IMG/VR virus record: IMGVR_UViG_2671181054_000005
Span: 1 to 45,542 of that record
Strand: one strand, 5' to 3'
Length of the DNA: 45,542 bases
Origin: a virus
Taxonomy: Duplodnaviria > Heunggongvirae > Uroviricota > Caudoviricetes
Numbering within the stretch: position 1 is the first letter of the stretch; every line of letters begins with the position of its first letter. This document shows positions 43,201 through 45,542 of the stretch, piece after piece. A program made the translations under genes and the position numbers. Below the pieces are notes generated by a model that made no database searches, was not told the DNA's origin, and worked only from the letters and a program-made list of their open reading frames with translations.

Positions 43201-43220
43201 TACTGTATGTATAAACAGTA
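43201..43220 (+). promoter_or_regulatory. LexA (SOS) box
   Basis: TACTGTATGTATAAACAGTA matches CTGT-N8-ACAG consensus (17/20 to TACTGTATATATATACAGTA). Confidence 0.7.
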
Positions 43221-43238
43221 TTTATGGGAGTGCAAATC

Positions 43239-43610
43239 ATGGAGTCCCAATTCCCCGCAGCAGATTATGCAGTAGAGCGTATCTCACTGGACGGCAGGAT
43301 CATTACAAGCCCAGCGTCGACATATTTGATGCTGGCAGCAGAGACTATCTGGCGCGCAGGCATTATGAAAGATGCAATGCTTGTCGTGGACAGCGCTGTA
43401 CATCCCATTGATGGTTCTATTATCGTATGCCAGTTCAACGGTGAACTTCGTCTTAAGCGCTTGAGGTTAGCTCCTGCTCGATGCCTTGAAGATCTTAACT
43501 ATCCAGACCGGCATCAGATGCTGACGTCTGAAACTCTCATTATGGGAGTTGTGACATATATCATCAACGATGCCCGTAGTGGTGAGTTTGACGACAGCCC
43601 GGTGATCTGA
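43239..43610 (+). CDS. UmuD'-like protein lacking the N-terminal arm (S24 peptidase fold)
   Basis: ATG 43239 preceded by GGGAG; in-frame stop at 43212-43214 precludes a longer N-terminus; aligns to UmuD from about its Cys24-Gly25 site; GDSM position reads AETI. Confidence 0.65.
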
Positions 43611-44878
43611 TGTTTGCCCTGGTTGATGTAAATTCATTTTATGCGAGTTGTGAGACGGTATTCAGGCCTGACCTGAAAGGAAAACCGGTTGTTGTGCTGT
43701 CGAATAACGATGGCTGCGTGATTGCGCGCTCTGCTGAAGCGAAACTGCTCGGCGTCAAAATGGGTGACCCGTACTTCAAACAGAAAGACCTGTTCACGCG
43801 GTGCGGAGTTGTCTGCTTCAGCAGCAATTACGAGCTCTATGCGGACATGTCCAACCGGGTGATGACAACGCTCGAAGAGATGTCGCCGCGCTGCGAAATA
43901 TACTCAATAGACGAGGCTTTCTGTGACCTTACCGGGGTTCGTAATTGCAGAGTTCTGGAAGACTTTGGACAGGAACTAAAGGACGCTGTATACCGTAACA
44001 CGCGGCTTGCTGTCGGCGTTGGGATAGGGCAGACAAAGACACTGGCGAAACTGGCAAATCATGCTGCAAAACGATGGCAGCACAAGACAGGTGGAGTTGT
44101 TGACCTGTCTAACGTCGAGCGTCAGCGCAAACTGATGGCAGCACTTCCTGTTGATGAGACATGGGGAGTGGGCCGGCGCATTACCAAAAAGCTCGAGGCT
44201 ATGGGGATCAAGACGGTTCTCGACCTGGCTGATACTGACATACGATTTATTCGTAAACATTTTAATGTGGTTTTGGAAAGGACTGTGCGTGAGCTGCGAG
44301 GAGAGCAGTGTCTAGAACTGGAAGAGTTTGCACCCGTAAAACAAGAGATTGTATGTAGCCGCTCATTCGGCGAACGAGTCACTGAATACGATGCAATGCG
44401 GCAGGCTATCTGTAGCTACGCGTCGCGAGCAGCGGAGAAGTTGCGTGGAGAGCATCAGTATTGCCGGTTTATCTCTGCGTTCGTCAAAACGTCACCATTC
44501 GCGCTTAATGAGCCATATTACGGTAACAGCGCATCGGTGAAGTTGCTGACACCGACGCAAGATAGCCGGGACATCATTGCGGCGGCCACTAAGTGCCTTG
44601 ATGCTATATGGAAAGATGGTCACCGATACCAGAAAGCGGGCGTGATGCTCGGAGACTTCTTCAGTCAGGGCGTCGCACAACTTAACCTGTTTGATGACAA
44701 TGCACCTCGCGTCGGAAGTGAGAAGCTGATGGAAGTTCTGGATCAACTCAACACTAAAGGCGGGAGAGGTACGCTGTATTTTGCAGGGCAGGGCATCCAG
44801 CAGCAGTGGGCGATGAAACGAGAAATGCTTTCGCCGCGGTACACAACAAGATTTTCCGATCTGCTGCGCGTTAAGTAA
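43610..44878 (+). CDS. umuC: Y-family translesion DNA polymerase subunit (UmuC)
   Basis: 422 aa; [22 protein letters not shown] and SIDEAF catalytic motifs; TGATG coupling to upstream umuD'-like gene. Confidence 0.9.
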
Positions 44879-45542
44879 CGAGTTCAATCAACTCCGGCCC
44901 CTGATTTTTCACATTACCAACGGAGCGCGTCACGGCGTGCCAGATAAACTTGTCGGCGGAAACCGCTCCGTCGGCTGCTATCTCTTCCGCTTCTTTCCCG
45001 CCTATATCCTGGCGCATCCACTCACGGGCCGCTTCAGGTGACAGAACAAGCGGCCGTCTGTCGTGAATGTCGACCAGTCCTTTATCAGCTGCAGATGTCA
45101 CTATCAGAAAGCCCTCAGCGTCATCACCGCGCTCAAATGGCGTGCTGCCTATAGCTGCCATAAAGATTGGCTGACCGTCGGCACGGTGAATGAAGTAGGG
45201 CTGTTTCTTGTCGCCTTCCTTTTTCCATTCGAACCAGCCATCAGCAAAGCAGATCGCCCGGCCATGTTGCCAGAGAGGTTTGAACATTCGGCTGGTGGCT
45301 GCGGTTTCGACGCGTGAGTTAATCAGCGGCGGTTTATCCCACCACCCGGGAGCGTATCCCCAGAACACTGGATCGAGATGCAGCTGCTCGTCGCGTTCGC
45401 TCAGCAGCAGAACTTTGGTGCCTGGCGCAACGTTGTAGCGTCCAATCGGCTCCGGGTCGTACGCGATGTCGCGATCGGCTTCATCCGCCAGGTAAGCCAG
45501 GTATTCTTCACGCGTTTGAGCTTGTGCAAAACGTCCACACAT
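44871..45542 (-). CDS. SOS-response-associated peptidase (SRAP, YedK-like abasic-site sensor)
   Basis: 223 aa, ATG at 45542; N-terminal MCGRF with catalytic Cys2; 3' end overlaps umuC 3' end by 8 bp. Confidence 0.85.

Follow-up and report, generated by a model that had tools for sequence, protein, structure and literature searches.

The right end of a 45,542-nt stretch of Caudoviricetes DNA (positions 1 to 45,542 of the IMG/VR record IMGVR_UViG_2671181054_000005; hereafter the window) carries a LexA-controlled cassette consisting of a gene for a UmuD'-sized protein of the HumD family, a full-length umuC and a convergent gene of the SRAP/YedK type. We propose, with a probability of about 0.75, that this cargo module encodes a second, phage-borne DNA polymerase V (Pol V), in which the autoproteolytic UmuD is replaced by a HumD that would be synthesised directly in the UmuD' form. 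HumD, UmuC and SRAP proteins are known, and so are phage-borne umuDC and an association between SRAP genes and umuDC. A HumD with a umuC of its own is rare, and we found no description of a humD-umuC operon in the literature that we searched. HumD has been presented as the sole exception to the proteolytic activation of UmuD-type subunits, being an already activated UmuD (PMC7092418).

The small gene (43239..43610, plus strand) encodes a protein of 123 residues. The earlier note had described it as a pre-truncated UmuD' analogue for which phage P1 HumD provides a precedent. The pre-truncated, UmuD'-like character stood, while the word analogue proved too weak. The protein passed the NCBIfam equivalog model NF051876 ("HumD family translesion DNA polymerase") with 151.4 bits against a cut-off of 120, its residues 6-123 covering profile positions 6-129. 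With the canonical UmuD model NF007621 it reached 65.7 bits, which is below the cut-off of 110; the UmuD of the E. coli D9 prophage, discussed below, reached 162. Pfam placed the open reading frame in Peptidase_S24. The window protein has 49% identity to P1 HumD and about 50% (49-52%) to the homologs N15 gp26 and phiKO2 Gp23 and to those of HK639 and HK140. Because it passed the HumD model, failed the canonical UmuD model and shares 49% identity with P1 HumD, it is, judged by its sequence, a true HumD-family member and no independent analogue.

When compared with the UmuD' structure (PDB 1UMU) by phmmer, the protein aligned with an E value of 2.6e-12, and its residue 5 was matched to UmuD residue 28. 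This agrees with the initial observation that the homology to UmuD begins only at about the cleavage site. Met1 is aligned with UmuD Cys24, the residue preceding the Cys24/Gly25 cleavage site, and the same holds for 107 of the 114 clusters of the family. The UmuD motif SGDSM is replaced by A-ETI: the Gly is deleted (one residue), Thr36 stands at the place of Ser60, and Lys97 has its counterpart in Lys73, so the earlier reading of a lost Ser and a retained Lys was correct. Neither the canonical Ser60/Lys97 dyad nor the N-terminal arm of about 24 residues with its Cys/Ala-Gly site is present in the window protein. Across the 114 clusters, threonine is the norm at the nucleophile position (97 clusters, 85%). 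Serine is found in 9, with P1 HumD belonging to this minority, and Glu, Pro, Ala or Ile in the other 8. The lysine is kept in 87 clusters and replaced in 27 (by Met in 15, by Arg in 7, and by Leu and others), and Thr and Lys occur together in 78. Since the loss of Ser is a family trait and the Lys is variable, this pattern argues that catalysis is no longer under selection.

A structure was predicted with AlphaFold2 (AF2) from an input alignment of 41 family sequences, P1 HumD being left out. The model has a mean predicted local distance difference test score (pLDDT) of 76, with values of about 90 in the beta core (residues 30-110) and low confidence in the arm (residues 1-16) and in the tail from about residue 111. 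Its top Foldseek matches were UmuD' (1UMU and 1AY9) and UmuD on the RecA filament (8GMT). As modelled, HumD has the fold of UmuD', that is, of the S24 C-terminal domain, and its N-terminal arm, which is flexible, starts at the position of the cleavage site. The C-terminal tail, ending in (I/M), is family-specific and without counterpart in UmuD; I-N-D-A-R..E.DD is invariant in the family alignment, and the window protein has the tail. It comprises HumD residues 111-123 (window 43569-43607), for which the confidence of AF2 is low. The SSB C-terminal tip reads DFDDDIPF, and the acidic-Pro-hydrophobic end of the HumD tail (EFDDxPV-COOH) resembles it.

We then turned to the region in front of the gene, where the earlier note had placed a near-consensus SOS box. 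A consensus scan located the LexA box TACTGTATGTATAAACAGTA at 43201-43220 on the plus strand. It has 18 of the 20 consensus bases (two mismatches to the 20-nt consensus), and it is the sole match to the LexA consensus in the 45.5-kb window, with no match in 100 dinucleotide-preserving shuffles. Nor does the window contain another CTGT-N8-ACAG. The spacing to the ATG at 43239 is 18 nt, as first reported. This ATG is the start in the NCBI annotation (PGAP) and in all orthologs, and it is preceded, at a distance of 8 nt, by the Shine-Dalgarno sequence GGGAG (43226..43230, plus strand). An in-frame TAA at 43212..43214 on the same strand closes the frame upstream of the gene. An alternative in-frame start, ATG 43224, where the open reading frame list begins, would add 5 residues at most and is without a ribosome-binding site, so the claim that no longer arm can be encoded was borne out. 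No remnant of the 24-residue N-terminal arm of UmuD was found in any frame of the 350 nt upstream, where the best local score was 19 and the shuffle means were 20.6-21.2.

The position of the box relative to the ATG is -36 in the window, -37 in P1 humD and -33 to -36 in the other humD loci. A putative -35 hexamer, TTGATG (43177..43182, plus strand), was assigned from a position conserved across loci: TTGAT(C/G/T) stands at an equal distance from the box in the humD loci of Cedecea, the metagenome contig, E. coli, Enterobacter and Cronobacter. A spacer of 18 nt puts the -10 element TACTGT (43201-43206) inside the LexA box, which suggests that the putative promoter overlaps the operator. The humD-umuC locus of Cedecea sp. 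S5-13 (locus positions 3950-3990) contains a 25-nt operator stretch, TACTGTATGTATAAACAGTATTTAT, identical to that of the window. Its humD belongs to another lineage (54% identity) and is likewise followed by umuC; a 25-nt operator shared with a humD of another lineage suggests that promoter regions have been exchanged between cassettes. The Citrobacter cassettes have two tandem LexA boxes upstream of humD, for example TACTGGTTGGATATACAGTA and TACTGTTTTTATATCCAGTG in one locus (about 3940-3980), and a divergent DinI gene upstream of humD.

The stop codon of humD and the start codon of umuC overlap by 1 nt (TGATG, 43608-43612), and by this arrangement the two genes are predicted to be translationally coupled, as the earlier note had stated. 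The umuC gene (43610..44878, plus strand) is full length and encodes 422 residues. Its product matched NF002955 over residues 1-422 with 855 bits, as well as the Pfam domains IMS, IMS_C and DUF4113. In the alignment UmuC retains Asp6, Asp101 and Glu102 together with the QLNLF clamp motif (357-361) and the C-terminal tail. The final 28 residues of UmuC are the reported UmuD'-binding site (PMC6511836). They are nearly identical between the UmuCs partnered with HumD and those partnered with full-length UmuD.

The third gene (44871..45542, minus strand) converges on umuC with an 8-bp 3' overlap (44871-44878), exactly as described from the sequence at the outset. It encodes an SRAP/YedK-type protein of 223 residues with the nucleophile Cys2 (PF02586, 171 bits; NF007413, 474 bits). 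Beginning with MCGRF, the protein aligned from residue 1 over 221 residues to the E. coli YedK structure 6KCQ with few differences (E 4e-136). We considered a LexA box for this gene and found none in the 275-bp spacer; there is also no terminator between umuC and the SRAP gene. When the cassette was compared with that of Citrobacter amalonaticus, the ratio of nonsynonymous to synonymous substitution rates (dN/dS) was 0.14 for humD (123 codons), 0.025 for umuC and 0.025 for the SRAP gene. By these ratios all three genes are under purifying selection, with humD the least constrained.

Whether the cassette is prophage cargo or host chromosome had been called undecidable from the window, and this question could be settled in favour of the prophage. 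The window is identical to positions 3251767-3297308 of the E. coli 20A24 chromosome (NZ_CP147044.1) and covers almost all of a lambdoid prophage of about 47 kb inserted between yciA and yciB. Read from left to right, the prophage has an integrase adjoining yciA, then Red-type recombination, immunity, replication, Nin and Q, followed by lysis, head and tail genes. At the right end a GDSL tail-fibre protein and an acyltransferase are followed by the cassette and then by attR. The comparison with a prophage-free relative proposed earlier was made with strain AH62, and the alignment with its empty site gave the att core TCTTCCTG at the 3' end of yciB and placed attR about 275 bp past the end of the window. 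A 10-mer obtained from an exact-repeat att search between the yciA-int and SRAP-yciB spacers was irrelevant, the empty-site alignment having given the real core. When the SRAP-yciB junction was used as a query, 5423 E. coli genomes matched, and all except 9 did so only from the yciB 3' end. Because attR lies beyond the SRAP gene and the cassette DNA is absent from the site in about 5414 of the 5423 genomes, the cassette is prophage cargo (a moron) in the classical slot between the tail-fibre genes and attR. A second umuC-like place on the 20A24 chromosome is presumably the native umuDC.

The same prophage has further genes of interest. A homolog of the DNA polymerase III subunit theta is encoded at about 14554-14808 of the window (record 3266320-3266574); phage P1 is similar in this respect, its theta homolog Hot being encoded about 750 bp upstream of humD. 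An anti-CBASS Acb1 family annotation stands at about 23033-24382 (record 3274799-3276148), at the start of the head-morphogenesis genes. In the same-site prophage of E. coli XJ5.2 (locus positions 154-7844), the upstream part has given way to ISEcp1-blaCTX-M-15, Tn3 remnants and qnrS1, so that the resistance genes are found within about 8 kb of the humD-umuC cassette.

The humD-umuC junction was present in 2 of 5426 complete E. coli genomes, namely that of the window and XJ5.2. We also observed umuC directly 3' of humD in Citrobacter amalonaticus, in Citrobacter sp. ANG330 and in one metagenome contig, all within the clade of 123-125-residue proteins to which the window protein belongs, and in Cedecea sp. 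S5-13 with its different HumD lineage. None of 50,697 phage records and none of 72,556 plasmid records spanned the junction; all matches there began at the start codon of umuC. Solo humD genes, without umuC, occur in P1, in P22-like prophages of E. coli and Enterobacter, in Cronobacter and in Kosakonia, and they account for about 40 of about 45 full-length loci from contigs taken as one genome per species. The 1-nt overlap followed by the 8-bp convergent overlap with the SRAP gene is identical in the window, XJ5.2, C. amalonaticus and the metagenome contig. The humD-umuC pairs of Citrobacter sp. ANG330 and Cedecea have no SRAP match in the 4-kb flank. At four loci in Pseudocitrobacter/Citrobacter (one at 4001-5038) a solo humD adjoins, or lies 1-2 kb from, a convergent SRAP gene, and umuC is missing from the interval, the SRAP match being fragmented in one. 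In gene content these loci look like the cassette of the window minus umuC.

To place the umuC-linked proteins within the family, a neighbour-joining tree of HumD proteins was rooted with UmuD. The umuC-linked lineages fell outside a solo clade (bootstrap 96.5%) that holds P1 HumD and the other sampled solo genes except for a few deep branches. They also have the loop length of UmuD and its KRLRL motif. The tree, the loop and the motif are compatible with the umuC-linked HumDs being near the ancestral state, without being proof of it.

The E. coli D9/D4 prophage occupies the same yciB site and encodes a full-length UmuD of 139 residues with the CG site, GDSM and the Lys. The D9 UmuC and SRAP proteins are 83% and 92% identical to those of the window, the 8-bp overlap is the same, and at the DNA level the resemblance to the window sets in about 15 nt into umuC. 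Full-length umuD in prophages of the same site, together with DNA similarity only from the start of umuC, indicates that the accessory gene was exchanged while umuC and the SRAP gene stayed together. Full-length umuD-umuC was also found in four phages: vB_SosS_Oslo, PHB10, ST846-OXA48phi9.2 and ENT39118. The "UmuD-like protein" of vB_SosS_Oslo (RefSeq NC_018279; locus positions 1495-1998) is annotated with 79 residues; the open frame gives a full 139-residue UmuD with a LexA box upstream, and the annotated start is wrong.

A different small protein was encountered in Enterobacter phage CobraSix, where a LexA-boxed gene for a 101-residue protein of PHROG 3469 (gp29; locus positions 1696-2001) abuts umuC in the umuD slot, its tail and the junction DNA being similar to those of humD-umuC. 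The E. coli D9 prophage has a LexA-boxed "UmuD-like" open reading frame for 102 residues, also of PHROG 3469 (locus positions 5077-5385), upstream of its full umuD-umuC. These 101-102-residue proteins had no Pfam or NCBIfam match. The D9 protein was considered as a HumD and rejected, the BLASTP match being barely significant and the profile comparison aligning only the C-terminal 24 residues or so. The PHROG 3469 protein may represent a third type of small subunit linked to UmuC.

In several relatives the accessory gene is damaged. The humD of BTP1-like Salmonella P22-type phages is split in two and is a pseudogene, and the umuD of the E. coli UTAK-5 umuD-umuC-SRAP cassette is frameshifted (locus positions 2079-2499), from which it follows that the accessory gene decays repeatedly. 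HumD of Citrobacter ANG330 and of cluster P0012 lacks its final 4 residues owing to a premature stop codon.

A more far-reaching picture can be drawn, which is possible, though we regard it as rather doubtful. The umuC-linked HumD would be a surviving intermediate between umuDC operons and the solo humD of the P1 type, the slot would be exchangeable between full-length UmuD, HumD and the 101-residue PHROG 3469 protein, the pair would act as a natural cleavage-free Pol V, and the tail would add a recruitment contact.

UmuD is cleaved to UmuD' on RecA* filaments, and UmuD'2C is then activated by RecA-ATP transfer. For the cassette of the window we envisage that LexA, bound at the promoter-overlapping box, would keep humD-umuC off until SOS induction. 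Dimers of HumD would then join UmuC in a Pol V-like trimer (HumD2-UmuC) without the slow RecA*-mediated cleavage, and the remaining gates would be LexA derepression and, probably, RecA-ATP transfer. Modelling has placed the N-terminal arm of UmuD' in the cleft of UmuC and the C-terminal tail of UmuC on UmuD' (PMC12926913). The expected outcome would be fast translesion synthesis on damaged phage and host DNA during prophage induction, a Weigle-type reactivation with mutagenesis as its cost. The convergent YedK-type SRAP protein, made under the control of a promoter of its own at the end of the prophage, would shield abasic sites in single-stranded DNA. Since umuC and the SRAP gene overlap without a terminator, their transcription may interfere mutually.

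Some of our observations speak against a phage-borne Pol V with a ready-made subunit. A sigma-70 consensus scan called no plus-strand promoter near the box, so the promoter proposal rests on elements that are positionally conserved across loci. The evolution of humD is about 5 times faster than that of umuC. The first four residues of the protein are MESQ, while the family consensus is MGFP. After removal of Met, MGFP would mimic GFPSP, the N-terminus of UmuD', and the arm tip of the window protein may work differently. HumD may also pair with the phage UmuC, the host UmuC or both. The same divergent tip (MESQ, not GFPS) and the faster protein change relative to umuC would suit a modulator or inhibitor that titrates host UmuD/UmuD' or UmuC through heterodimers, or that holds the phage UmuC inactive, and so dampens mutagenesis during lysogeny; the second umuC-like place on the host chromosome would allow such cross-talk. 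We consider this role unlikely, however, because HumD sits exactly in the position of umuD and is coupled to a umuC that is intact, under strong purifying selection and conserved in its C-terminal tail, and because P1 HumD, the prototype of the family, is annotated in the P1 record as functionally complementing UmuD'. McLenigan et al. 1999 reportedly found that P1 HumD substitutes for UmuD' in SOS mutagenesis.

A direct translesion role for HumD was also weighed against three other explanations. The decayed relatives (the umuD frameshift of UTAK-5, the 4-residue loss of ANG330 and the split humD of the BTP1-like phages) raise the question of whether the small open reading frame is itself a decaying umuD remnant, truncated by recombination within non-functional cargo. 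This is very unlikely, given a dN/dS of 0.14 over 123 codons, an equivalog model passed over the full length, a ribosome-binding site, a LexA box, the conserved stop/start coupling and a start at the cleavage-site position across the HumD family. There is just as slim a chance that Thr36 and Lys73 are still catalytic and, acting in trans, cleave a different S24 substrate, for instance host UmuD, LexA or the prophage repressor. Intermolecular cleavage is possible for UmuD, and the frequency of Thr (97 of 114 clusters, with Lys in 78) would fit such an activity. A conserved dyad is nevertheless contradicted by the 27 clusters in which Lys is replaced and the 8 with Glu, Pro, Ala or Ile at the nucleophile position, and the Gly of GDSM is deleted. 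That we are dealing with the ordinary chromosomal umuDC with a mis-called start can be dismissed almost entirely. The native E. coli umuC has about 74% DNA identity, is found at another place and has an annotated full-length umuD as its partner, the prophage stands between yciA and yciB in a place where nearly all E. coli lack it, and the in-frame stop and the LexA box preclude a longer frame. The three findings that the earlier note had named as contrary to its proposal, an upstream start restoring the arm, an intact Ser/Lys dyad and an ordinary umuDC locus, were thus all absent.

Cleavage of UmuD is the classical timing checkpoint that delays the mutagenic Pol V until late SOS. A mobile operon supplying both UmuC and a subunit born in the activated form would remove this checkpoint, and it travels on prophages of Enterobacteriaceae, one of which, in XJ5.2, also carries blaCTX-M-15 and qnrS1. 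The cassette could serve as a natural system for asking what cleavage protects against, why phages carry UmuD' mimics and how HumD arose.

Among known systems, the closest to the small subunit are P1 HumD and its relatives (N15 gp26, phiKO2 Gp23 and the HK639/HK140 proteins). The alignment with UmuD and P1 HumD that had been suggested as a check revealed both the UmuD' homology and the relationship to P1. Like the window protein, these relatives are UmuD'-sized, start at the cleavage-site position and have the same C-terminal tail, and P1 humD has its LexA box about 36-37 nt before the ATG, as in the window. However, P1-type humD is solo, with no umuC next to it in P1 or in the P22-like prophages examined, whereas humD of the window is followed by umuC. 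P1 HumD keeps the Ser (DSHH) where the window protein has Thr, and the clade of the window has a loop 6 residues shorter than that of P1-type HumD and lies outside the solo clade of P1.

E. coli Pol V (umuDC; UmuD'2C-RecA-ATP) and the orthologous MucAB, RumAB, ImpAB and SamAB systems of plasmids and ICEs are likewise LexA-controlled operons of two genes, with the gene of the small subunit first and with stop and start codons that overlap or nearly abut. Pol V and the window have the UmuC core, the clamp motif and the UmuD'-binding tail in common. Subunits of the UmuD/MucA type are proproteins with a Cys/Ala-Gly site, a Ser/Lys dyad and RecA*-assisted self-cleavage, while HumD of the window lacks the propeptide, the site and the Ser. 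The phage and prophage umuDC(+SRAP) cassettes (D9/D4, UTAK-5, Oslo, PHB10, ST846-OXA48phi9.2 and ENT39118) occupy the same cargo slot after the tail-fibre/acyltransferase genes, beside att or the integrase, and their UmuC proteins are 76-87% identical to that of the window. They carry full-length UmuD (139-145 residues) with CG or AG at the cleavage site, GDSM and the Lys, where the window has HumD. The PHROG 3469 proteins differ from HumD in being shorter, in having no Pfam S24 match and in aligning only over the last 24 residues or so. The SRAP protein shares Cys2 with E. coli YedK, an abasic-site crosslinking protein of the SRAP/HMCES family, but unlike YedK it is encoded by a prophage, where its gene has a fixed convergent overlap of 8 bp with umuC. 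Aravind et al. 2013 (PMC3765255) described SRAP genes as associated with umuDC and with prophages.

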